Shown piece by piece: positions 37,715 through 53,497 of a stretch of DNA of 56,751 nucleotides. The stretch is from Candidatus Saccharimonadota bacterium. GTDB lineage: Bacteria > Patescibacteriota > Saccharimonadia > JAGOAT01. The stretch covers positions 1-56,751 of the forward strand of contig JAGOAT010000001.1 in assembly GCA_017983775.1 (NCBI GenBank), read 5' to 3'. Under the pieces are notes generated by a model. That model was not told the DNA's origin and made no database searches. It worked only from the letters and a program-made list of their open reading frames with translations. Every line of letters starts with the position of its first letter. Position 1 is the first letter of the stretch. The position numbers were made by a program, and so were the translations under genes.

Positions 37715-37791
37715 TGGCAACTCGTGGCAAAATTCATCGGAGTATGACGGAGAAGGCTTAGCCAATTTTGGACAATGGTACTCCGATCAAG

Positions 37792-39266: not shown

Positions 39267-39767
39267 ATGGGTATCATAATAATCCTCGACAATATCCGTA
39301 GTTGTCACAATGTCGGAGCAATCTTGCGGACTGCTGATGGCGCTGGAGTCAGTCAGATAGTCTGTACGGGATTTACTCCCTACCCAGAAATAGTCGGTGA
39401 CACTCGTGATCCCAGAATAATTGCTAAGAATTCCTATCAGATATCCAAGACTGCCCTTGGCGCAGAAAAGACAATAAATATAAGGTATGATATAGATATA
39501 ATTACTACAATAAACCGCTTAAGGTCAGAGGGTAATACCATCCTGTCATTAGAAGAGACCGCAGGCTCTATCGACCTTTATGCTAACCTCTCCGAACTAA
39601 AGTCTTATCCAAAAATTGCCCTAGTGGTGGGCAATGAAGTGACAGGTGTTCAACAATCTGTACTCAATAAATCCGATCAGATCATCTGCCTACCTCAGAT
39701 GGGAGCCAAAAACTCCCTCAATGTTTCAGTGGCTACTGGAATTGCCCTATATAGCTTGCGGTTCTGA
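39267..39767 (+). CDS. SpoU/TrmH-family RNA 2'-O-methyltransferase
   Basis: LDNIRS.HNVGAILRTADGAGV, VVGNEVTGV and IPQMG...SLNVSVATGIALY. Confidence 0.85.
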   Translation: MGIIIILDNIRSCHNVGAILRTADGAGVSQIVCTGFTPYPEIVGDTRDPRIIAKNSYQISKTALGAEKTINIRYDIDIITTINRLRSEGNTILSLEETAGSIDLYANLSELKSYPKIALVVGNEVTGVQQSVLNKSDQIICLPQMGAKNSLNVSVATGIALYSLRF

Positions 39768-39813
39768 CATTGCCACAAGAGTTGCACGGAATTATTCTTT
39801 GCTAAATTTTGAT

Positions 39814-39948
39814 CAAAAGTCATCAGAGTCTTCAGCCAAAACTGCCCTAGTCTCAGATATGAGATCTTCCTTGATAGTTTGTCCGAGATCACGCAAATGA
39901 ACATGGATATCTACCAATCCTGGTAAACCCAATTTATCCTGACTCATC
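39814..39948 (-). pseudogene. 44-codon remnant resembling the N-terminus of a dihydroorotase/amidohydrolase
   Basis: The translation MSQDKLGLPGLVDIHVHLRDLGQTIKEDLISETRAVLAE... contains the D-x-H-x-H metal motif and then stops. No continuation in the same frame. Confidence 0.3.
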
Positions 39949-40086
39949 ACCCTAATCATGCACTACTTTAGTAGGCTTTCTTACTCGACGCTATCAAACC
40001 GCCCATGCTTGCTATCAATAGATTTTAGCGCTAATCTATATACAATAAATTATTATTTTTACTAAATATTATTAACGCTCAAACCA

Positions 40087-41589
40087 ATGCTTACCCTGAC
40101 ATATAGCACTGCCCATATGGGTTTGAATAGTAGAATTATTGACATAGAAACCCATGTCTCGAGTAGGGGTCTGCCCAATATCATTGTAGTTGGACTCGGA
40201 GATAAGGCAATCGAAGAAGCCAGAGAAAGGATCAGCGCTGCAATTCGCAATTCTGGACTCCAGATTCCTCAGAGCCGTATCACGATCAACCTAGCTCCAG
40301 CTGATCTACCCAAGACTGGTTCAAGCTTTGATTTAGCACTAGCTATTGGGATCTTGTCCTGTAGTCAACAAATTACTCCACCCAACAATAAATCTCTATT
40401 CATAGGTGAATTATCCCTGAATGGCAATCTCAGACCGACCAATTCAGTAGTAGCTAGTACTCATCTAGCTATGGAGCAAAAGTTTGATGCCATATATCTA
40501 CCTGCCCAAAATGCTGAGCAAGCCTCCATCATTAACCAGATCAAAATCTATCCGATCACAAGTCTAATCCAGCTCGCTAATCATCTTAATGGTACAGTGC
40601 CAATCAAGCCAATCAGACCCAAGCCACTGAGACTGACAAGAGTAGTTCCAAATCCTGACTTTGCCGAAATCTATGGCCAAAAGGCGGGCAAAAGAGCAAT
40701 GATAGTCGCAATTGCTGGAGGTCACAACATTTTGCTTAATGGCACACCAGGTGCTGGCAAGACAATGCTGGCCAAAGCAGCTAGAGGCATCCTGCCACCA
40801 ATGAATAAATCTGAAATGATGGAAGTCAACAAGATTCATTCTCTGACTCGTGAGCTAAATGACCTAATTAGTGAGAGACCTTTTCGCTCCCCCCACCACA
40901 CCGCTAGCAATATCTCGCTAATCGGCGGGGGCAAGATACCAAAGCCTGGTGAAGTCAGTCTCGCCCACAATGGTATCCTTTTCTTAGATGAGTTACCAGA
41001 ATTCCCCAAAACTGCTCTCGAGGTACTTCGTCAGCCACTGGAAGATGGGTATGTAAGCATCGCTAGAGCTCAAGCAAGCCTGAGCTTTCCGGCTGACTTT
41101 ATCCTGATCGCTACCCAAAACCCTTGTCCTTGTGGCTACTATGGAGATAACCTCAAGGAGTGTATTTGTAACCTTCATCAAATCCAGAGATATCAAAAGA
41201 AGATCTCTGGCCCACTATTGGACAGGATTGATTTATTAGTCAATATTGAGAGAGTACCCCTAGACCAAATGCAAAATCAAACCAATCTAGAGACCTCCGA
41301 AAAACTCAGATCCCAAGTAATCACAGCCCGCAAGCTCCAATCAGATCGCTACAAAGATTGTTCAATCAACCAAAATAGCCAGCTAACCAACAAGCTGATT
41401 AAGCAATTCTGTTCTCTAGATAAAACCTGCCTTGAACTAACCTATCAGGCACAATCGAGACTCAAGCTCACAGGAAGAAGCTATCAGAGGGTTCTTCGGG
41501 TAGCCCGAACAATCGCTGATTTGGATGGTGCTGAAGATATCTCCAGTGATCACCTCCTTGAAGCCCTGAGCTATCGACCAGCTTCTTAG
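40087..41589 (+). CDS. comM: YifB/ComM family Mg-chelatase-like AAA+ ATPase
   Basis: Lon-protease-like N domain (INLAPADLPK.GS.FDLA.A.GIL), Walker A GTPGAGKTMLAK, LFLDELPEF and a Cys cluster C.CGY.......C.C. Confidence 0.9.
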   Translation: MLTLTYSTAHMGLNSRIIDIETHVSSRGLPNIIVVGLGDKAIEEARERISAAIRNSGLQIPQSRITINLAPADLPKTGSSFDLALAIGILSCSQQITPPNNKSLFIGELSLNGNLRPTNSVVASTHLAMEQKFDAIYLPAQNAEQASIINQIKIYPITSLIQLANHLNGTVPIKPIRPKPLRLTRVVPNPDFAEIYGQKAGKRAMIVAIAGGHNILLNGTPGAGKTMLAKAARGILPPMNKSEMMEVNKIHSLTRELNDLISERPFRSPHHTASNISLIGGGKIPKPGEVSLAHNGILFLDELPEFPKTALEVLRQPLEDGYVSIARAQASLSFPADFILIATQNPCPCGYYGDNLKECICNLHQIQRYQKKISGPLLDRIDLLVNIERVPLDQMQNQTNLETSEKLRSQVITARKLQSDRYKDCSINQNSQLTNKLIKQFCSLDKTCLELTYQAQSRLKLTGRSYQRVLRVARTIADLDGAEDISSDHLLEALSYRPAS

Positions 41590-41866
41590 CGAGGCCTGTG
41601 CTGATGAGATCTTCAGCTCCAGACTGCACATTCTGGGCTATAGTTATTGTCTTTTCTCATCTCATCATCTTGACTAACGTTATTATGATATAAACTTGTG
41701 AGGCCAAAACGGATGATTTTTATTCCGTATTGACAAAATGTAACAGCCGCTATGATGTCTAACAGTCCCAAACTAATAGCGGAAGGATTTGTCATCCTCC
41801 GATTGTCCGTAGGCTCCTCTTCTCGTCATCCCCCGAAACCCTCCCCTGTCTCGTCATCCTCCGATT

Positions 41867-41937
41867 GTCCATAGGACAATACGGGGATCCACCTCTACTG
41901 AGATTTGGATAATTAATCGATACGGGATACTGGATCT
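41867..41937 (+). repeat. left copy of the ~71-nt direct repeat flanking the CRISPR-Cas module
   Basis: tgtctcgtcatcctccgattgtccataggacaatacggggatccacctctactgagatttggataattaat. It matches 47494-47566 at roughly 90% identity, by eye. A partial extra copy lies at 41809-41830 and an inverted ctcgtcatc motif at 41981-41995. Confidence 0.85.
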
Positions 41938-42047
41938 CCGATCTTGCCCATCTAGCAACCCGAAGATGACGAGGTGGAGGGCTGGATTTTGGAAGGTGAC
42001 GGAGTGGAGTCAGACCCTAAACTCCACAACCCCATTGAATCTATCAC

Positions 42048-45000
42048 TTAGCGTAATCCTGGATCAAAACCCACTGATGGATAAGTAAGCTGGCTACGGA
42101 TTAGCTCATAAAATGTATCCTGATCCCATTGCTTTTTATCGGATTGTTTCTTGGTGTCTAGATACTCTGATTTTAGTTTTAAATAACCTCGCAATGCTAT
42201 ATTGAGAGCAGCTTGCAAATCTGCATCTGCAATATGTAGACAATCCAAGTATGGACATACAAAGATAGCCGAGTTGGCATTTTGATTGACCCAATCCTTC
42301 GCATCAAGTTCGCTAAAAATCCTATGATAATCCTTATTCTTACCAATAGCGAATTGCATTGCTTGACTATGTATAGGTGGCCTCATAAAAGCATAGATTA
42401 GCTTAAGTTTATTGATCTCCTGACCGCTCACCTGACCAAAATTACCCCCCGTATATGCTAGCAGTTTATTGTTGTCACCAGTGTCAATAGTAGCTAATTC
42501 AGAAAAATCCTCTAGTATTTCAAGCTGATACTGCTCCTTATCTTTGATGTCATATTTGTACCAACGTTTACATTTACCACAAGTCTGACTAGTGCCAGAA
42601 GCAGATACCTCGATTCCTGGCCTTCTTGTCCGTCCCTTTGCAGCTTTACCCCAGTAATGCTCCAGCTTGGCATTGTCCGCACTATTTTGCCCAAAGACAG
42701 ATCCGACTTTGAGTGATTTATAGACTTTGACAATTCGATTTCCACCAGTCTCAAAGGCATTAATATTAAACTCATAGCTAATTCGTGCCTGATACTTCAA
42801 GGCCAAAGCTTCTACTCTAGCTTGATAGCTACTGGCCAATGACTTGCGCAACTCTGCTATATGGGTAGATTGACTAGAAAAAGTTGCAAATCTTTGACGT
42901 TTTTTGAGCTGAGTTACCTGACCGGAGAGAGCCTGGTGTTGATTGTCACGAATAAATCCCTGATCTACAATGACAACATTACCTTCATCACCTACTTCAA
43001 TAACCAACCATGCTAGACCTTTCTCCCCTACATCTACACCAACTATCCGATTGGGGATTTGTTGCTTCTCTAGCCCAAATGCACCCTTTTTGGATTCTTT
43101 GGCCAGGATATTGAAAGGAATACTTGCAAACACCCTCTCCGAACCCTGAATGTTTTCTATATGAAGTCTAGCCTGATCATCCCATCTAATCTTCTTGCGA
43201 GTTTCCGCAATGCTAAAGCCTCCCATAAATGATAATGGATTATGTTTATATTTTGGTTTCTTGATCAACCACCATAAGAATTGTTTCTGATATCTACTAC
43301 CTCCTATACGGTACAGTGCAGAATTCTTTGCTGGCTTATAAGGCTTAGCAACGGGCAAACTACCTGATTTCGGTTTTGGAAATTGTTTGAGATCGTCAAA
43401 GCCACCCTTAAGCTCAGCACCCATCAATCCACCATGTTGCTCTATGTAATATTTTGTACTAGTCACTGGATCTTTTGGATCAAATACTAGCTTGATTTGT
43501 GCTCCATTGACTTCCTGAATAGCAGATCTCTCTATGTATTCTCTCTTTGAGACCAAACTCAACAACCCCTTGAGCTCAGCTAGCAACATTGTCTGCAAGA
43601 AGGTATTTAGGCTGTGATTATTGAGCCTATAGTCCCTAAGAGCTAGGTATATGTCTTGCAGTTTATTAATAGGCTCTACATTGTCTACCTCAAACTGATC
43701 AACCTTACTAATCAATATACTAGATAATATCTTGATCAATTCAATATAGTCTATTGTAGAATCTAGTTGTCTAATGACCGTTACTGGATTCCTAATCTCC
43801 TCTAGGGTCTCTTCTAATATCTCAATTATTGGGAACCTGCTAGCTGGGGTATCTTGATAGCTGATCAATTCCCTCTTTTGCCTAGCAAAAGGTGAATTGT
43901 AAAACACCTTATCTTCGATATTGAGGGTTTCCATATTAAGTCTCAGCTCAACAAGCGCCAATATCTTGAGAGATTTGTGTGATCTCAGCGATACTGCCCA
44001 TTTCCTTAGCCTCTCCAAATCTTTTGCTTGCAAATAAGCATCTGATTGGTATTTGATAATAGGACTAATAGCACTAAGAAGCTTGGTGAATTGACTGATC
44101 AAACCTTGATAATTATCTTTATAATTTACGACTTTGATAAACTTCTCTCGCGCTGACTCTCCAAGCAAGTTTGGTATCCTAGGAAGTTGCTTGGTGAGAT
44201 CTCTAAAATCAGTCTTGAAATCCAAACCCAACCCTGAGTTGGCCTGTAAATGGGCATTTAGGTCTCTCCTAATCCTAGGTAGTAACAATTGAGCACCTTC
44301 TGTCAATAATGGATCAAGGTACTGATCTGCGTGATAGGTATCTAGCAAAGACTGATAGATATTGATCAGATCATTAATACCTATCCCCAAATCAGGGTCT
44401 TGATCAACCAACTTATCTTGATACTTCGTCAGGTTATCTAGGTGTTTGCTGGCTACAGTGACTATCTCCTCTTCTTGCCTCAGCTTATTACTATAAAATG
44501 AACTCATCTTACTAGCGAAATCAACCCGATAGTCACCCCAACTATTAGCTAGCTTGGGCTGGCCAATATTTTTGGCCAACTCAGCTAGTCTTAGCAATCT
44601 AGCTCGCACTATTTCCCTTTCCCGATCTGTGTATTTGAGATACACACTCATGTCATCCAGGTACTGATTGATCACTTCAGCCCCTTGAGAAGCCAGATCA
44701 TTAAAGACTTGATTGAGGAAATTACTGAAACCACTTGCACTATTGGCTAACCCGATCAACTCCTCGATATCTTTTGCATTTAGACGATCTGTCTTGTCTA
44801 CCAAGTCCAAGTGTAACCTCCGAATAATCTGTTCAAACAGCTCAGTCTTACTATCCGCCTCCAGTTCTTCCCAGCTAGGCAAAATCAAAAATGAGATGGA
44901 TTTTCTGGGACTAACGGGTAGTTGTGGGTCTTTGATGCCAAATAATTCTAGCTTGAATAAGGTCTTTTGATTATCCCCAGTAATCTTATTGATTTGCTTG

Positions 45001-45530
45001 GCAAACTGATGAGCTATCTCTAGCAATCTGTCTGAAGGTCTCTCTTGAGCAGAAATTGTAGCATAACGCTTGAGAAAAATCTCTACCAATTCTGTCTCAG
45101 ATCTAGCATTTAATCTACTAGAGGTCAGTATATTTTGCTCCCAACCAGTATAGTTGAGCTCTTGTTTTAGTGCTGGATCTGGAATCTGATTAAATAAGCT
45201 TTCTAGATAAGAATCATTATCTAGAATTATTTCTCCAAGCTTACCCAGTCTAGCTGTCGAGTACATAAAAACTCCGCCCATCGCCAAAGTCTCCAGCCAA
45301 AACTCTAAGATTGAAGACCTCTGAGCTAAATCAATATAATCACTTAATTGCAACCTACCATAAAGTCCTCGGTAGTCACTAGCTATATTCTTAGTCAATG
45401 CTGGTATGTCATCGCCATAGAGTGGAAACTTGATTGTCCGAATTGCGGTACCATTTTCTGCCCAGGACAATCTAGAATCATGCAAGCGATACCCTGTCAA
45501 TAATCTTTGTGATTTGTTGCGTTTTTTCAT
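42048..45530 (-). CDS. cas12d: single large CRISPR effector, RuvC-only (type V; CasY/Cas12d-like)
   Basis: 1160-aa ORF ending 118 nt from the array. RuvC-I is IVGVDVGEKGLAW (D833, nt 43032-43034). RuvC-II is ISYEFNINAFE (E920, nt 42771-42773). The Zn ribbon is CGKC (984-987) plus CPYLDC (1092-1097). RuvC-III is HIADADLQAALNIALRG (D1102/D1104, nt 42219-42227). There is no HNH motif, and the N-terminal ~800 aa have no motif I recognise. The locus has cas1 only, 25-nt repeats and 18-19-nt spacers. Confidence 0.85.
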   Translation of the reverse strand: MKKRNKSQRLLTGYRLHDSRLSWAENGTAIRTIKFPLYGDDIPALTKNIASDYRGLYGRLQLSDYIDLAQRSSILEFWLETLAMGGVFMYSTARLGKLGEIILDNDSYLESLFNQIPDPALKQELNYTGWEQNILTSSRLNARSETELVEIFLKRYATISAQERPSDRLLEIAHQFAKQINKITGDNQKTLFKLELFGIKDPQLPVSPRKSISFLILPSWEELEADSKTELFEQIIRRLHLDLVDKTDRLNAKDIEELIGLANSASGFSNFLNQVFNDLASQGAEVINQYLDDMSVYLKYTDREREIVRARLLRLAELAKNIGQPKLANSWGDYRVDFASKMSSFYSNKLRQEEEIVTVASKHLDNLTKYQDKLVDQDPDLGIGINDLINIYQSLLDTYHADQYLDPLLTEGAQLLLPRIRRDLNAHLQANSGLGLDFKTDFRDLTKQLPRIPNLLGESAREKFIKVVNYKDNYQGLISQFTKLLSAISPIIKYQSDAYLQAKDLERLRKWAVSLRSHKSLKILALVELRLNMETLNIEDKVFYNSPFARQKRELISYQDTPASRFPIIEILEETLEEIRNPVTVIRQLDSTIDYIELIKILSSILISKVDQFEVDNVEPINKLQDIYLALRDYRLNNHSLNTFLQTMLLAELKGLLSLVSKREYIERSAIQEVNGAQIKLVFDPKDPVTSTKYYIEQHGGLMGAELKGGFDDLKQFPKPKSGSLPVAKPYKPAKNSALYRIGGSRYQKQFLWWLIKKPKYKHNPLSFMGGFSIAETRKKIRWDDQARLHIENIQGSERVFASIPFNILAKESKKGAFGLEKQQIPNRIVGVDVGEKGLAWLVIEVGDEGNVVIVDQGFIRDNQHQALSGQVTQLKKRQRFATFSSQSTHIAELRKSLASSYQARVEALALKYQARISYEFNINAFETGGNRIVKVYKSLKVGSVFGQNSADNAKLEHYWGKAAKGRTRRPGIEVSASGTSQTCGKCKRWYKYDIKDKEQYQLEILEDFSELATIDTGDNNKLLAYTGGNFGQVSGQEINKLKLIYAFMRPPIHSQAMQFAIGKNKDYHRIFSELDAKDWVNQNANSAIFVCPYLDCLHIADADLQAALNIALRGYLKLKSEYLDTKKQSDKKQWDQDTFYELIRSQLTYPSVGFDPGLR

Positions 45531-45576
45531 CTTAATTGATACTTAATCTATATGTTATATCTGTAAATCGCGAGAT

Positions 45577-45620
45577 AGTTGGAAAGGCAAGGTAGCGAAT
45601 CAAACGCTACGGAACCAACT
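45577..45620 (-). ncRNA. candidate scout/tracr-like RNA core (stem-loop with a short anti-repeat)
   Basis: Minus strand reads AGUUGG-UUCC-GUAGCG-UUUGAUU-CGCUAC-CUUGCCUUU-CCAACU. The outer 6-bp and inner 6-bp stems are perfect. GCCUUU in the internal loop is complementary to AAAGGC at the spacer-proximal end of the repeat. The transcript ends are unknown. Confidence 0.35.
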
Positions 45621-45647
45621 TTAATTAAAACACTGGGGAGGTGACTA

Positions 45648-46194
45648 ATCTTTTTCCCCATATTTTTCGGGGCTCTCCGCTGCCGCCTCGGCCTTTTTCC
45701 CCATATTTTTCGGGGTGCTTCAGTCCGCTAGGGGCCTTTTTCCCCATATTTTTCGGGGGGCTAAATTACTTGCAGTAGCCTTTTTCCCCATATTTTTCGG
45801 GGCAACAAAAGGATTGGCAGTGCCTTTTTCCCCATATTTTTCGGGGGACATTGCTGTCCCCTCCTGCCTTTTTCCCCATATTTTTCGGGGGCCATGGGGC
45901 AGGTTAGTGCCTTTTTCCCCATATTTTTCGGGGTAGACGCTTACTGGGCGAAGCCTTTTTCCCCATATTTTTCGGGGAGGTCAGTAATAACTTCTTGCCT
46001 TTTTCCCCATATTTTTCGGGGACAGCACGCACGCGTATGTGCCTTTTTCCCCATATTTTTCGGGGTTGTAAATGTAGCTCCTTGCCTTTTTCCCCATATT
46101 TTTCGGGGATGGTAAAATATAGTCAAGCCTTTTTCCCCATATTTTTCGGGGAGCCAGAAAACCTGGATCGCCTTTTTCCCCATATTTTTCGGGG
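45648..46194 (-). CRISPR. CRISPR array with 13 repeats and 12 spacers
   Basis: The plus-strand repeat is GCCTTTTTCCCCATATTTTTCGGGG (25 nt), present as 12 identical copies starting at 45691, 45734, 45778, 45822, 45866, 45909, 45953, 45997, 46041, 46084, 46127 and 46170. A degenerate terminal copy lies at 45648-45672 (ATC in place of GCC). Spacers are 18-19 nt and all unique. The strand is inferred from the degenerate repeat at the left end and the AT-rich leader at the right. The crRNA-sense repeat is CCCCGAAAAATATGGGGAAAAAGGC. Confidence 0.97.
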
Positions 46195-46303
46195 AGATCC
46201 CGCGAATTTACAGATATAAATTTACAAAAAACTATTGTTTTTCTGTTTATATATTAGCAGTAAGTTGATAATTTTCAAGCCAAATTCACGACAATGCATT
46301 ATA
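46195..46303 (-). promoter_or_regulatory. putative CRISPR leader / cas1-array intergenic control region
   Basis: AT-rich sequence next to the non-degenerate end of the array. It contains the right arm of the array-flanking inverted repeat (46197-46219). Confidence 0.4.
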
Positions 46304-47377
46304 ATGGGACAAAATAGTATGAAAATCAAATCCCCAACCAAACAAGCGCATCATAACAAATCTCCCAATAAATCTCGACGTGTACCCGTATGGATTCCTT
46401 ACCCTTCAAGTATCAGCATAGACAGGCAAGCAAAATTGATTACCGAATACAACGGTGGTGATCTCGAAGCTAGCCTAGATGAGATATCTAGCATCATGAT
46501 CTATGGTGAGACAAAAACTAAGATCGAGATATCTACATTAGAAAAGATTGCCCGTAAAGGAATACCCATCATTATCCATAGGCGCAACATGCATCAATCT
46601 ATCATTATTACTGGCTCTGGCAGACCAGACCCTGATGACACCCTAACCAAGCAAATACTATTCCGCACAAACCAACACAAGAGAAACCATATTGCCCGAT
46701 CTTTGCTCAATGCCAAATTTATTTCATCCAGATGTCTAGTATCAGAAACCATCAAACTTGATAAAGATCTAACTCTTGCAGAAATGAGACAGATTGAAGC
46801 CCAATTGGCTAGAGAATATTGGTCAAACTTCTTTGATCAATTATCACCTGATGCTAGTCTTGCTAGAAGGAATAACAACCCATACAGCAAAGCACTGGAT
46901 GCCAGTAGCAAGTTTCTGACTGGAATAATACTACGCTGGGTAAGCTACCATCACCTCTCTCCTTTCCATGGTTTTCTACACGAACCAACTAGCTACCCTG
47001 CATTGATTTATGATTTAATTGAACCCTATCGACCTATATTTGAATATAAGATTCTCCAGAGTTGGCAAAATGTCATCAGTCCAGACCCCTTAAAACTTAC
47101 AGGTATAGCTATTGATACCATAAAAGATAGTCTCAATGAACAAGTCTACGTACCTCTTACTCGGCAAATAGTCACTAGACAGGAGCTACTTCATGGAATA
47201 GTGCTATCACTCAAGCATTATTTGCTAGGTAATCAATCTCGTCTACTGATTCCTCTGGAGGGTAAACCCAACGGAGGAAGACCTCCCAAGGTAAATTTTA
47301 GACTCTATGGTAGGCAAGCTGGCAAGACTGACTTCTGGCAACAAGCCAGCAAGGTAGCAAAAAATTCTCCCACCTGA
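46304..47377 (+). CDS. cas1: CRISPR-associated endonuclease Cas1
   Basis: ...FHGFLHEPTSYPALIYDLIEPYRPIFE... is the Cas1 His / acidic-residue signature (YDLIEPYRP at 47009-47035), with an upstream EAQLAREYW glutamate region. The start is set at ATG 46304 (alternative ATG at 46319). The track ORF begins at TTG 46235. Confidence 0.9.
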   Translation: MGQNSMKIKSPTKQAHHNKSPNKSRRVPVWIPYPSSISIDRQAKLITEYNGGDLEASLDEISSIMIYGETKTKIEISTLEKIARKGIPIIIHRRNMHQSIIITGSGRPDPDDTLTKQILFRTNQHKRNHIARSLLNAKFISSRCLVSETIKLDKDLTLAEMRQIEAQLAREYWSNFFDQLSPDASLARRNNNPYSKALDASSKFLTGIILRWVSYHHLSPFHGFLHEPTSYPALIYDLIEPYRPIFEYKILQSWQNVISPDPLKLTGIAIDTIKDSLNEQVYVPLTRQIVTRQELLHGIVLSLKHYLLGNQSRLLIPLEGKPNGGRPPKVNFRLYGRQAGKTDFWQQASKVAKNSPT

Positions 47378-47493
47378 CTAAATATTTGCTCAAGGCATCG
47401 ACTCTGACCCCTATCAAGATATCACTTTCTTAAAGTAGCTGTTGCTTAGATTTGCGGGATAACCCTTTGCCCTGCTAGTCCTTTGTCTCGTCA

Positions 47494-47566
47494 TCCTCCG
47501 ATTGTCCATAGGACAATACGGGGGATCCACCCCTACTGATATTTGATAATAATTATTTTTGTTTTG
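47494..47566 (+). repeat. right copy of the ~71-nt direct repeat flanking the CRISPR-Cas module
   Basis: tgtctcgtcatcctccgattgtccataggacaatacgggggatccacccctactgatatttgataataattat. Confidence 0.85.
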
Positions 47567-47640
47567 GTTTTTTAATAACACAAAATTTCAGTCAAGTACT
47601 GAAGATGACAGGAAGGTATAAACCCCTCAATAAGCTCCCC

Positions 47641-47994
47641 CTACAAGGTAAAGAATTCGATTGCCTGGCCACCCAGATCAGTCTTCTCTAGAACGAAGTA
47701 GATAGCCAGATAAATCACCCCTACTATCATCACCATCATCAATGACCGTTTAATCTCACGCGTAACATAGTGCAATCTCTGATCAATGTAGACCTTATCA
47801 TGCTCTGCCTTGGCTGATAGTTTAATCTTCCCTGATCCCTGAACAGGTTTGACTCCATCTGTAGACCTACCCTTGGCTATACTCGGCTGAATAGCTTGAT
47901 CAGAATCCTTGGCAATAACCTTAGGTTTATTACTAAGCTTTTGCTTCTTCTTGATGTGAGATTTTGGCATAGCTACATCATAACACAAATCCAT
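47641..47994 (-). CDS. hypothetical basic protein with C-terminal TM helix
   Basis: 117-aa ORF with a Lys-rich N-terminal half and one TM helix. Confidence 0.4.
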   Translation of the reverse strand: MDLCYDVAMPKSHIKKKQKLSNKPKVIAKDSDQAIQPSIAKGRSTDGVKPVQGSGKIKLSAKAEHDKVYIDQRLHYVTREIKRSLMMVMIVGVIYLAIYFVLEKTDLGGQAIEFFTL

Positions 47995-48013
47995 ATGCTA
48001 TGATTAATAGTAC

Positions 48014-48487
48014 ATGGAAAGAATTGTTCTAGGTATAGCACTTGTGAGCTTATTGCTATCAGTATTTGCAATCAAAAAATTACTTGATCTCAGAGCTATT
48101 TATAATAAGATCTTTACTCTTAATCAGTCAGGTGATCAGACGACAAGCCTCAAGGATCAGCTAGAGCAGTACAGTAGTGAAGTCAACCAGTGCCTAGACC
48201 AACTCGACCAATTGGCTAGCTATACTGCCAAACTCCACAAACAACTCCAGACTAGCTCTCAAAAGATAGGCCTAATTCGCTTCAACCCTTTCCAAGATAC
48301 TGGTGGCGATCAAAGCTTTTGCTTGACTATTCTCGATGCCAAAGACACTGGATACTGTATATCTAGCATCCATACTAGATCAGGTACTAGGGTGTATTGC
48401 AAAGAAATCCAAAAAGGCAAGAGTCTCCATCATCTTTCAGAAGAAGAACAAGCTTCTATTGCCAAAGCAATCAGTGTAAAATATTAG
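48014..48487 (+). CDS. DUF4446 family protein
   Basis: N-terminal TM helix, a coiled coil, then GLIRFNPFQDTGGDQSFCLTILDAKDTGYCISSIHTRSGTRVYCKEI. Confidence 0.7.
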   Translation: MERIVLGIALVSLLLSVFAIKKLLDLRAIYNKIFTLNQSGDQTTSLKDQLEQYSSEVNQCLDQLDQLASYTAKLHKQLQTSSQKIGLIRFNPFQDTGGDQSFCLTILDAKDTGYCISSIHTRSGTRVYCKEIQKGKSLHHLSEEEQASIAKAISVKY

Positions 48488-48491
48488 CTGT

Positions 48492-48869
48492 ATGTTATTT
48501 AGAAAAAAGCTCCAAAACCATAAAGTATCCCAGCAAACAGCTGTCTTATTTGAGACAGTCCTTGGTGACAATCTCGAAAGTGAGGGAAATCTATATAGTG
48601 ATACTGATATAGTGATCAATTCCAAATTTCGAGGTCAGATCAAAACGACTGGCAAACTAACTGTGGAACAAAATGCAGAAGTAGACGGCGAGATCCAGGC
48701 TCAGGATTTGATCGTAGTTGGCAAACTCAGTGGCAAAGCGACAATCAATGGTCAATCTATCCTACTTAGTACAGCTATCACCAATGCTAATATCCGTACT
48801 GGCACATTAAGGGTCGAAACTGGTGCAATATTAATCGGCAAAATCTCTACTGCCGTGGTAGGTAAATAA
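48492..48869 (+). CDS. bactofilin (polymer-forming cytoskeletal protein)
   Basis: Beta-helical repeats: G....D..I.....G.I.T.GKL.V...A.V.GEI.A.DLIV.GKL.G. Confidence 0.8.
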   Translation: MLFRKKLQNHKVSQQTAVLFETVLGDNLESEGNLYSDTDIVINSKFRGQIKTTGKLTVEQNAEVDGEIQAQDLIVVGKLSGKATINGQSILLSTAITNANIRTGTLRVETGAILIGKISTAVVGK

Positions 48870-48870
48870 A

Positions 48871-49689
48871 ATGTATGCCTTCTTGCTCGATACTACCGCA
48901 AAACTTGGCAACAAGAAAGATCTGCTCAAAAAAATCCGCCAATCAGCCGCCAAACAATCTGTATTCGGAGCCAATTTTGCCTTGTCAGATGAAAATCGGG
49001 CAGGTCAAGAAATCTCCTCTTTTGTTAAGCAGGTCAAGAAAGATTATCAGACTATTATAGTAGTAGGTGATGACTGGACACTTGAGAGTGTGATCAACGA
49101 AGTCCATAGCCAGCAAGCAGATATTACCCTAGGATTTATACCCATCGATAAGAACTCCCATTATGCTGAGCTGCTCAATATCAAAGGCTGGAAGCAAGCA
49201 GTCCAAATACTACCTCAACGTAGGACAGTTGGTCTGAACCTTTGTTCAATCAATAATGAACTTTTTATTGACCAAGCAAAGCTCAGAATTATCAATACTT
49301 CTACTGACCTGCTTCCTCATCTAAAATTTCAATTTGACGACAAGCTAACTGTCAAAGCTAGCACCGTCTGGGGTATCCGAGTAATCAACAACAACCTTTG
49401 GCGAACCGAAACCTTAGACCAGTACCAAAGAAACCTTCTGGTTGAAGGCTATGGAGGTGACCAGTCTGGCAAAATAATGGGCACAAAATTACTAAAAAGA
49501 CTCAACAAACCCCTGCAACCCCAGCTCAGTGACCAGCTAATCAATATCCATGCTGATAAATTAGAGATCACTATTCGCAATGGACACTTCCACTATCAAG
49601 GTCAAGAACTCAGCGTCAACAAATTGACTATTGGCGAGAGCTACCCAAGGCTCAACTTCATTGTGCCAAAAAAAACCCTGTCTAGATAA
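48871..49689 (+). CDS. diacylglycerol-kinase-catalytic-domain-like protein (divergent)
   Basis: IIVVGDDWTLESVINEV...LGFIPIDKNSHYAELL parallels the GGDGT...lGiiPlGtgNdfa pattern, but the glycine motif is degenerate. Confidence 0.45.
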   Translation: MYAFLLDTTAKLGNKKDLLKKIRQSAAKQSVFGANFALSDENRAGQEISSFVKQVKKDYQTIIVVGDDWTLESVINEVHSQQADITLGFIPIDKNSHYAELLNIKGWKQAVQILPQRRTVGLNLCSINNELFIDQAKLRIINTSTDLLPHLKFQFDDKLTVKASTVWGIRVINNNLWRTETLDQYQRNLLVEGYGGDQSGKIMGTKLLKRLNKPLQPQLSDQLINIHADKLEITIRNGHFHYQGQELSVNKLTIGESYPRLNFIVPKKTLSR

Positions 49690-49741: not shown

Positions 49742-49917
49742 TCATATTTATTTAAAATACACAAATCAAACCATAAAATCTTGCAAGCCTATCCCTACAA
49801 AGAGCCAAATAACCCCCTTCGTGCTTTTCAAGGAGTCCCCTTGAAAAGCACTATCCCAACAGATCAAAAAGCCCAAGGAGTCCCCTTGAAATGGCCAAAA
49901 TTGACCTTGTTTTGAGA
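49742..49917 (+). repeat. left arm of a 176-bp inverted repeat (contains promoter cassette copy 6 at 49829-49900)
   Basis: It is the reverse complement of 53322-53497 with one mismatch seen (C at 49895 versus T). It is followed by a vestigial proS-like start, ATGAAATTCTCAAAATTT..., at 49920. Confidence 0.9.
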
Positions 49918-49946: not shown

Positions 49947-51554
49947 CTAAAAAGTTAATTTTGTCATCACCTGACTAGGGTAAATCAAAGCCAAATCTCC
50001 ATCACCCAATTCCTCAATGTCAGACCATTCTCCAAGCTGGTTTTTTATATCCTCAACACCGCAATCACTGAGTGGTCCCCTGATTAACTCCTTGCCAACA
50101 ATGATTGATGTTTTCTTGTCCCGATCTTCTATCTTATCAAATACTCCTTTGTCAAAAAATAAATTGACCTTGTATAGCTTATTGTCCCGACAATCAAGTG
50201 GGAAAATCACCTTATCTGAATCCCTACCAAAAAAATATTCTGCAGGGATGGCCGTGCTCATATCAGCATATCCATAGCTAAAATCACTACCAACAATATA
50301 ATCGTATCGTCTCTCTAGGACATCAATTCCCTCCAATCTATTATTACTAACCCCAGCCAGCGACCGAATTAATCCGTAACTATTAACCAATATTACGACT
50401 GTAAATATTGCTATCAAGCTCTGCTTTGGCACTGCCTCCAAGGTAGCTATCAACATAATCAATCCCGGAAATAGCATGATCAAATATCTTGATGTTCCAG
50501 GCAAAAGAGGCTGTCCACTCGCAAAATATATAGCTACAGGAAAAACCAATGCCAATACTATCAATACCATCAGCTTCCTATTATGGCTATACAGTTTGTA
50601 TCTGATATATAGCCATACCGTCATAGCAAATAAATATAATGTGAAGACATTATTGAGACGCCGTCTCCACCTGCCCATTTCCTCGGTACCTGAAAAAATA
50701 TCAAGGATATTCCTAATGGTTTGCTTTATTGCAGGGCTAAGATTATTTAAGACATCCAAGCTTTGATTCAATGATCCAACCTTGAAAAAAACTATACCAA
50801 AAAATTTTCTTGCAAAAAGCTGAATAGCTAAACTCAACAAGAAGGCTATTAGTATCACGATCAAGACCTTGATCGCTGATTTTTTATTCCGTCTATCAAG
50901 GAAGAGGCTATCTAGTATTATATAGGCAGCTAGTATTGTACCCGATACATAGATCTGCATAGGATCTGAGAAAAATACCAGAGCTAAGTAGATTACAAAA
51001 GGAATCAAGGATACTAGAGACTTACCCTCATAACACCTAATCCCGAGATAGATAATACCAAGACCAGCAACAATCTCTAGGTTTCTTGAATTCGAAAATT
51101 GTATCCAAAACACCGATCCTGCTATAGTAGATATCCATAGAAACATCATATTAAAATACATCCCAGGATCAATACTAAACTTTTTTAAGATTCTATAGAG
51201 GATATAGTAGATGCCGATTATGGTTAAGATATTGATCAACAATGTAGACAAGATCAAAAATAACGTTGGATCTAGATTGAATATCTCCGCTGGCATATAA
51301 AATACAAAAATCTTGAATATATAGTTTGTAGGTGCAGTTAAGACACCCTCAGTATAGCCACTAAGCCAATGCCTAGCTAATAATTGTTGCCCTATCAAAT
51401 CAAAGTTTATAGGCTGAGAAAGAAATCTAAAGATTGTCCAAATTGAAACTATTGTACAGCTTAAAAAAATTGTCACTATAGTAGACATATTTCGCCTTAC
51501 AGTATGCCAAAAATTTGCTAACAATCTTGAATTCATAACCCAGGATTGTCCCAT
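49947..51554 (-). CDS. polytopic membrane protein, possibly a GT-C-type glycosyltransferase
   Basis: 535 aa with about 12 hydrophobic helices followed by a soluble C-terminal domain. The assignment rests on architecture only. Confidence 0.4.
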   Translation of the reverse strand: MGQSWVMNSRLLANFWHTVRRNMSTIVTIFLSCTIVSIWTIFRFLSQPINFDLIGQQLLARHWLSGYTEGVLTAPTNYIFKIFVFYMPAEIFNLDPTLFLILSTLLINILTIIGIYYILYRILKKFSIDPGMYFNMMFLWISTIAGSVFWIQFSNSRNLEIVAGLGIIYLGIRCYEGKSLVSLIPFVIYLALVFFSDPMQIYVSGTILAAYIILDSLFLDRRNKKSAIKVLIVILIAFLLSLAIQLFARKFFGIVFFKVGSLNQSLDVLNNLSPAIKQTIRNILDIFSGTEEMGRWRRRLNNVFTLYLFAMTVWLYIRYKLYSHNRKLMVLIVLALVFPVAIYFASGQPLLPGTSRYLIMLFPGLIMLIATLEAVPKQSLIAIFTVVILVNSYGLIRSLAGVSNNRLEGIDVLERRYDYIVGSDFSYGYADMSTAIPAEYFFGRDSDKVIFPLDCRDNKLYKVNLFFDKGVFDKIEDRDKKTSIIVGKELIRGPLSDCGVEDIKNQLGEWSDIEELGDGDLALIYPSQVMTKLTF

Positions 51555-53321: not shown

Positions 53322-53497
53322 TCTCAAAACAAGGTCAATTTTGACCATTTCAAGGGGACTCCTTGGGCTTTTTGATCTGTTGGGATAGTGCTTTTCAAGG
53401 GGACTCCTTGAAAAGCACGAAGGGGGTTATTTGGCTCTTTGTAGGGATAGGCTTGCAAGATTTTATGGTTTGATTTGTGTATTTTAAATAAATATGA
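53322..53497 (-). repeat. right arm of the 176-bp inverted repeat (contains promoter cassette copy 7 at 53339-53410, upstream of proS)
   Basis: See 49742-49917. Confidence 0.9.

Follow-up and report, generated by a model that had tools for sequence, protein, structure and literature searches.

A type V-D CRISPR-Cas module (clusters of regularly interspaced short palindromic repeats and CRISPR-associated genes) lies beside comM in a Candidatus Saccharimonadota bacterium (GenBank assembly GCA_017983775.1, contig JAGOAT010000001.1). The window analysed here is the whole of that stretch, 56,751 nt, and corresponds to the entire contig C9 of a genome of 786,922 bases in 43 contigs (G000). From left to right, comM is followed by a cluster of short palindromic repeats, the cas12d gene, a CRISPR array, cas1, a further repeat copy in the same orientation as the first and a 117-aa gene (Table 1). 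A first-pass annotation of this DNA took the repeats on either side as a sign that the module arrived, or can leave, as a cassette by recombination between them. Considering two genomes of the genus, the present one and a sister genome (G001, 817 kb in 2 contigs, the sole same-genus genome compared), we find it quite probable that the flanking repeats are ordinary members of a dispersed family similar to REPINs (doublets of repetitive extragenic palindromes, REPs, that form hairpins) and BIMEs (bacterial interspersed mosaic elements), and that the CRISPR module is an accessory insert in a slot carrying such elements. The data below make the cassette interpretation unnecessary and for the most part contradict it.

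The pair of direct repeats itself is real. By BLAST, the left (41847-41913) and right (47484-47553) copies are 95.2% identical over 62 nt in the same orientation and diverge beyond about position 62-67; a 34-nt core is identical in both (41853-41886 and 47490-47523) and occurs exactly twice in the window, with zero occurrences expected from 100 shuffles. The likeness described at first pass is therefore retained with other figures, the match covering fewer nucleotides at a higher identity than given then (71 nt, about 90%), and the positions (41867-41937 and 47494-47566) having been 10-20 nt too high. The hairpin core is present in both copies as TTGTCC-ata-GGACAA, and the open reading frame (ORF) list, profile matches and repeat scan agree with the earlier statement that the repeats enclose exactly cas12d, the array and cas1. 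Likewise, the absence of an integrase or transposase gene holds for the module and also for its neighbours, according to the ORF list and a Pfam scan of both.

Both repeats belong to longer units. The left one is the 5′ half of a 118-nt unit plus 6 nt upstream, and this unit runs in the order 12-mer, hairpin 1, GGGGATCCA, linker, TGGATCTCC, hairpin 2, CCGAAGATGAC. An inverted motif already recognised at first pass, now placed at about 41956-41974 (pair I7), is the 3′ arm of the same palindromic unit, and the partial third copy reported upstream is also genuine (41791-41813); it is accompanied by an extra 16-nt piece in the ~28-nt module-plus-spacer form typical of element clusters. In the right unit the 3′ half is degenerate, being replaced by AT-rich sequence with the terminal CTGAAGATGAC alone kept. 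The DNA fold z-scores are −2.5 (plus strand) and −3.2 (minus strand) for the left unit and −3.9 for the right one. Compared over its full length, the left unit has its nearest counterpart on contig C37. Elsewhere in the window, a lone copy of the 12-mer with one mismatch is found at 37737-37748 on the minus strand, in the gap upstream of an aldolase-like gene, and no hairpin follows it.

Table 1. Genes, CRISPR array and repeat elements at the comM slot (positions in the window).
Feature	Position	Strand	Basis or remark
comM/YifB-like Mg-chelatase-family gene	40087..41589	+	Pfam Mg_chelatase, ChlI, Mg_chelatase_C; conserved left anchor of the variable slot
Truncated element piece: 12-mer module plus 5′ half of hairpin 1	41791..41813	+	Repeat family D2; 95.7% over 23 nt to full copies
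Solitary 12-mer module variant GTCATCCCCCGA with 5′ TCTC	41821..41836	+	Repeat family D4; 16-nt piece
Left full unit, 118 nt, REPIN-like inverted doublet	41853..41970	+	Unit extraction; alignment A1
3′ tail of left cluster with a further inverted 12-mer-like module GGAAGGTGACGGAG	41975..42007	+	Read from sequence and cluster listing
cas12d (casY), 1160 aa	42048..45530	-	NCBIfam NF033951 Cas12d/CasY equivalog; PADLOC Cas12d
Non-coding stretch, cas12d start to array	45531..45648	.	Candidate leader and/or scoutRNA region
CRISPR array, 13 repeats	45649..46194	+	24-nt core, period 43-44 nt, spacers ~18-19 nt
cas1, 380 aa	46235..47377	+	Pfam Cas_Cas1, 73 bits; PADLOC Cas1
Right unit, 120 nt	47490..47609	+	5′ half intact, sister of the left copy
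117-aa gene, right anchor of the slot	47641..47994	-	Conserved; no Pfam or PADLOC family

The check that settles the cassette question is the whole-genome repeat count. Further copies of the element, which we name family 1 after the dispersed palindromic family to which the two flanking repeats belong, do exist throughout the genome: near-full-length BLAST matches at 88-94% identity are found on many contigs (e.g. C8, C34, C35, C20, C37, C15, C29 and C4), and the 12-mer GTCATCCTCCGA, allowing up to one mismatch, occurs 80 times on 22 of the 43 contigs versus 0-4 times in five shuffles. These 80 occurrences form 43 clusters, from which 37 are called intergenic and six fall inside an ORF of a crude gene caller, a count that is probably too low because the assembly is fragmented and 4 of its 86 contig ends lie within 400 nt of a 12-mer. 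G001 presents 381 copies of the 12-mer in 104 clusters. Exact copies number 48 here and 331 in G001, as opposed to at most one per genome (0-1) in 39 further relatives from the same order or class, and a gapped element pattern searched in one genome per species matched 52 stretches, all of them on two contigs of one record. Family 1 is confined to one genus. It accounts for 0.75% of the DNA here and 2.75% in G001, where ~14% of the gene gaps carry an element (median length of those gaps 561 nt versus 35 nt overall). The repeat is consequently a high-copy intergenic element scattered genome-wide, the first half of what the first-pass annotation had named as speaking against its own cassette reading, and where a genome is full of one repeat, its direct copies on either side of a defence module are no evidence of a cassette.

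From both genomes, 97 full units of 110-128 nt were extracted (22 here and 75 in G001), and their basic unit is ~115 nt long, with two inverted ~40-nt REP-like stem-loops on either side of a variable linker. Alignment A1 comprises 73 G001 units and the two copies of the window; the other G000 units and two G001 units crossing a 20-kb locus border are left out of it. Along A1 the order is GTCATCCTCCGA, hairpin 1, ACGGGGGATCCAG, a variable linker of about 35-45 nt, CTGGATCTCCGG, hairpin 2 and CCGAAGATGAC, and the consensus fold consists of two long stem-loops with outer GTC/GAC pairs and an inner CCAG/CTGG helix. By reading A1, each hairpin comes in about eight sequence versions and pairing is kept in all of them, 98.1% of the stem cells being paired. 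Double-change cells number 237 versus 66 in shuffles (none of 500 shuffles reaches 237), counts that are inflated by a few hairpin versions having been inherited by many copies; the covariation score is 0.283 versus 0.103 for shuffles and at most 0.075 for slid partners. Across 75 units, alignment of the left half to the reverse-complemented right half gives a score of 11.2 (shuffled, −8.7; direct orientation, −6.2); the outermost 12 nt show 81% identity to the opposite end in inverted form, and the termini read GTCATC...GATGAC. The two halves are inverted homologs, so that the unit is a doublet of REP-like sequences in the REPIN layout. Direct duplications of 2-8 nt at the ends were found in none of 95 units, this test omitting two units too near a contig end. 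Clusters are built from zero to several tandem 12-mers with a ~16-nt spacer, followed by at least one full unit and often a closing solo stem-loop; the tandem module copies of GTCATCCTCCGA, ~28 nt each, often stand ahead of the units.

MITEs (miniature inverted-repeat transposable elements), Correia/NEMIS, BOX and RUP elements are small, non-coding, structured and intergenic, with modules varying in copy number, and family 1 shares with them its small size, structure, intergenic location and modular build of varying copy number. Its terminal inverted repeats GTCATC...GATGAC also recall MITEs. The earlier label of a MITE/REP-like palindromic cluster is nevertheless appropriate in its REP part and not in its MITE part: unlike MITEs, family 1 lacks target-site duplications (0/95 units), and no related autonomous insertion sequence (IS) with the same ends was found, in the course of work that included no systematic transposase search. 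A MITE identity was rejected on the missing duplication and on the IS110 element of G001, the one multi-copy transposase gene noticed, which has different ends and uses the family-1 element as its target.

Judging from its sequence, family 1 belongs to the REP/REPIN-like elements. As with the REPs, BIMEs and REPINs of Enterobacteria and Pseudomonas and their REP-associated tyrosine transposases (RAYTs), it is a high-copy intergenic palindromic element, it lacks target-site duplications and it is confined to one lineage. Differences are found in the tandem ~28-nt 12-mer modules of its clusters, an arrangement of short modules that is not known from classical REPINs, and in its host, a roughly 0.8-Mb genome of the Candidate Phyla Radiation. 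The unit of two inverted stem-loops with a spacer matches the REPIN layout as given in PMC3337134 and PMC3390384, and IS110-family insertion into the element parallels what PMC11208160 describes for REPs. A full-text literature search returned REPs or MITEs in the Candidate Phyla Radiation or Patescibacteria, or REP-flanked CRISPR islands, in no title or abstract and in single mentions only, the matching papers being judged unopened, by term counts alone.

According to PMC3390384, REPs of Pseudomonas occur as inverted pairs and flank RAYT genes. Y1_Tnp genes (PF01797) are likewise present in both genomes here. By reading, the HUH and tyrosine motifs are kept in five of them (G000 C40:21940-22665 and C22:21798-22451; G001 C2:188067-188720, 276616-277170 and 298649-299299), each standing between 62-80-nt direct repeats, 93-100% alike, of a second and unrelated family (family 2). 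On sequence evidence, intact Y1 genes with family 2 form the classical RAYT picture, a putative RAYT-like arrangement in a Candidate Phyla Radiation genome. One family-2 flank used as a query gave 109 matches in G001, indicating a many-copy family there, and the window has two inverted 176-nt copies (49742-49917 and 53322-53497, 99.4% identical; hairpin GTGCTTTTCAAGG...CCTTGAAAAGCAC) bracketing 3.4 kb that include a 535-aa ORF (49947-51554). The sole Y1-like paralog near family 1 (G000 C35:4511-5209; G001 C2:20719-21420; 71% identical) has, by reading, lost its catalytic tyrosine and HUH histidines in the two species; family-1 clusters lie one gene away from it, on both sides in G001 and on a single side in this genome. 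By analogy with RAYT systems, family 1 may have spread as single-strand hairpin DNA handled by an HUH/Y1 transposase, and in contrast to those systems no intact Y1 gene is flanked by family 1.

Family 1 sits in gene gaps in either orientation, with a mild preference for convergent gaps. Relative to the flanking genes of G001, 35 elements are same-sense, 34 antisense, 20 convergent and 12 divergent, against a gap background of 96 convergent to 96 divergent, and a fixed orientation relative to genes was rejected given the 35 to 34 split. In G001, 66 of 102 pairs of adjacent clusters are co-oriented (p 0.0025; mean under permutation 51.9), and 44 of 72 when neighbours at most 8 kb apart are considered; here the figure is 16 of 21 pairs. 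Similarly, 15 of 73 G001 units have their best match no more than 10 kb away, 2.1 being expected, so that local sister copies are usual and the pair in the window fits this habit. Housekeeping genes, too, stand between near-identical direct pairs: a Mur ligase together with an arginase-family gene, the gene for ribosomal protein S20 and a DUF4878 gene. Physically close copies thus tend to be alike and adjacent clusters to share orientation, which makes a gene block between two direct copies the normal state in this lineage.

Comparison of conserved gene adjacencies points to the age of these sites. Conserved gaps with an element number 28 here; 23 of these have one in G001 too, and in 52 other conserved gaps it is present in G001 only. 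Most sites of this genome are therefore shared by the two species, which suggests that they are old, or alternatively that hot spots persist there. The element at the comM gap is most likely older than its cargo, and the type V-D module would be an accessory insert in a slot already carrying elements. For Pseudomonas, PMC3390384 describes REPs as markers of older genome regions, with mobile elements located in REP deserts.

The sister genome shows the same slot with another content. No cas12d is found in G001. Its comM is 82% identical at the protein level, and comM and the DUF4446 genes are syntenic with the window; DNA homology ends with the stop codon of comM and is found again from that of the 117-aa gene (BLASTN of 47638-49676 gives 74%). 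In between, 1.5 kb of G001 hold a gene pair for a RelB-like antitoxin and a YafQ/ParE-family toxin. The empty comM site that a cassette would predict was not found there: the slot holds a second cargo. Among metagenome contigs, 80 comM loci were kept, all at most 50% identical and thus too distant to show an empty site, and six 12-mer matches in their 888 kb are about background. The gap upstream of comM differs as well, being 319 nt here (39768-40086) and 4.1 kb with five ORFs in G001 (C1:41480-45601), without a family-1 element; variable cargo consequently occurs also on the other side of comM.

The rival explanation that survives best, which we still hold to be improbable, sees the copies as landing pads for cassette exchange: accessory DNA would be gained and lost at element copies, and the module would have arrived, or could leave, through its repeats. 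This could happen by homologous recombination between copies (e.g. a Campbell-type circle with one copy) or by element-recognising recombinases of the IS110 type. Cargo was defined as non-shared genes of at least 90 aa in gaps with conserved adjacency. Of 41 cargo gaps in this genome, one (the CRISPR module) has elements on both sides, five on one side, none inside only and 35 have no element; for the 54 gaps of G001 the corresponding numbers are four, 12, one and 37. Most variable cargo in both genomes therefore has no adjoining element. A looser cargo count (37, 60, 43, 283) was dropped as inflated by 60-aa ORFs in repeat-rich gaps. Synteny breaks are not clearly enriched for elements either (4/29 broken versus 28/423 conserved adjacencies, p 0.14). 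Against landing pads we also count the sister direct pairs around housekeeping genes, the lack of a recombinase gene in or beside the module and of any IS110 copy in this genome, and the build of each flank, which is a complete usual cluster and not half of a split one; by eye, a single cluster split by an insert was rejected on the same ground.

Several observations nonetheless favour exchange at the elements and weigh against our reading of the flanking copies as ordinary family members. First, a 19-nt variant of hairpin 1 occurs at 41864 and 47501 only, across both genomes, and this private variant makes the two module-flanking copies sisters and not random members of the family. Second, the comM slot holds CRISPR-Cas here and the RelB/YafQ-ParE pair in G001, each between co-oriented clusters, those of G001 being near-identical over about 170 nt, a likeness read by eye only and missing from the self-BLAST list at ≥93%. 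Third, the five cargos with elements on both sides all consist of defence or mobile genes: the CRISPR-Cas module here and, in G001, the RelB/YafQ and MazE/PemK toxin-antitoxin pairs and two IS110 copies. Elements are also about 2.5 times commoner in cargo gaps (odds ratio 2.46, p 0.007 in G001; 2.8, p 0.04 here), an enrichment confounded by gap length, long gaps collecting both elements and stray ORFs. Two further points weigh against our reading without bearing on exchange: no Y1 transposase with intact catalytic motifs stands beside family-1 copies, and the genome comparison, with its 489 reciprocal best hits and 423 gaps of conserved adjacency, depends on crude greedy ORF calls and one sister genome.

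IS110 is the other point in favour of landing pads. G001 has three identical IS110-family transposase genes (418 aa, PF01548 and PF02371), and all three copies are located inside a family-1 element, where the CTGGAT-CCC motif has its C run; PMC11208160 reports REPs as targets of IS110-family elements. The copies lie at L037:8865-10121, L039:5109-6365 and G001 C2:31367-32620, and for two of them the left flank is identical over at least 260 nt, a hint of a larger duplicated segment. A search for IS110 in the present genome returned no copy. One may speculate that REPIN-like clusters serve as reusable docking sites, with defence modules swapped by recombination at the copies and the repeats left as a scar that could still delete the module, and that the IS110-type recombinase of G001 would exploit the same sites; this we regard as slightly more doubtful again than landing pads in general. 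The comM slot and an IS110 aimed at the element do offer a concrete place to ask whether repeats steer gene flux in uncultured bacteria.

Genomic islands or cassettes bounded by direct repeats that integrases make (attachment, att, sites) are among the known systems closest to this locus. The locus is similar to them in having an accessory defence module between co-oriented repeats beside a conserved gene, and a sister genome with different cargo at the same place. It is unlike them in that no integrase or transposase is found in or beside the module, that the repeats are not private (43 and 104 clusters) and also flank housekeeping genes, and that the base composition of the module is not atypical, its GC content being that of the flanks.

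A further explanation, which we consider quite unlikely to account for the locus, is that the copies are kept for their action on flanking genes, as two-way transcription stops, stabilisers or binding sites. By analogy with REPs, for which such roles have been proposed elsewhere, family-1 copies may act as gene-end hairpins, which would account for their position at the 3′ ends of comM, cas12d, cas1 and the 117-aa gene. Both gaps around the CRISPR module are indeed between convergent genes, the excess of convergent over divergent gaps in G001 (20 versus 12, background 96:96) goes in the same direction, strong compensatory variation keeps both stem-loops paired, and a palindromic build workable either way fits the 35:34 orientation split. 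However, by a hand count from the pair table, stem mismatches of the G-U type (~18) and of the A-C type (~21) are about equal, so that nothing points to one transcribed strand or to selection on one RNA strand. No T run follows the units, and a simple terminator scan matched only one short inner hairpin, in the right copy. The 52 conserved gaps with an element in G001 only mean, in addition, that the element is dispensable at most sites. A gene-end role is compatible with the copies being ordinary members of a dispersed family and would not exclude it.

That the repeats are an assembly artefact or a chance similarity is practically negligible: metagenome contigs do often end or mis-join at repeats, as the contig ends found near 12-mers here illustrate, but the expectation for the 34-nt core is zero and the contigs of an independent run (X2) reproduce both junction sequences. 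Twenty public runs (11 studies) contain the region, most of them metagenomes from wastewater and sludge, and Logan contigs of four of these runs (X2, X5, X12 and X9) were placed on 39500-49500. Contigs of the four runs reproduce both junctions and break at both element copies, where loose ends of other copies are found, including at the 3′ tail of the left cluster; those of run X2 span 41857-47513, 39500-41876 and 47494-49500. No contig skips the module from the left to the right copy in these runs, and the excision or circle junctions looked for as a mark of a mobile cassette are absent from their assembled contigs, in which rare forms are dropped and not visible.

Joints in the contigs are confined to the array, whose spacer content varies from sample to sample, indicating that the array is alive in nature. 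Run X9 has different spacers over most of the array. In another run, about 104 nt of the array are replaced by one 18-nt spacer.

The module itself agrees with type V-D (Cas12d/CasY) loci of the Candidate Phyla Radiation in its full-length Cas12d, its short-spacer array and cas1 as the sole adaptation gene seen, and nothing unusual was noticed in it. Cas12d matches NF033951 with 1024 bits (cut-off 250), covering profile positions 1-1179 of 1180, and its PADLOC match has an E-value of 3.5e-136. No close relatives of cas12d were found in 40 relatives, metagenome contigs or species genomes, and the protein had no sequence match among solved structures. The array repeat gives 13 matches with none expected, the first repeat, nearest cas12d, carrying one mismatch, and the spacer length fits the 17-19 nt reported for V-D spacers in 10.1101/2023.12.12.571249. 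Between the cas12d start and the array, a terminator-like hairpin is found at 45610-45592 on the minus strand. The remaining ORFs of at least 50 aa within the module are all short (51-87 aa) and overlap cas12d, the array or cas1. An Rfam scan over 41500-48000 (E up to 1) gave a single chance-level match inside the array, leaving the elements unmatched.

With the repeats most probably ordinary family members, the remaining interest lies in a structured REPIN-like element that makes up 0.75-2.75% of the DNA in ~0.8-Mb Candidate Phyla Radiation genomes. Other repeats were seen in the same genomes. In G001, a heliorhodopsin gene (PF18761, E 2.5e-86; L030:13554-15424) lies between two 120-nt direct repeats, 96.7% alike and without the family-1 12-mer, and self-comparison of G000 shows long tandem repeats of 96-99.6% identity at C22:37133-39036 (~633 nt) and C30:6014-6660 (~108 nt).

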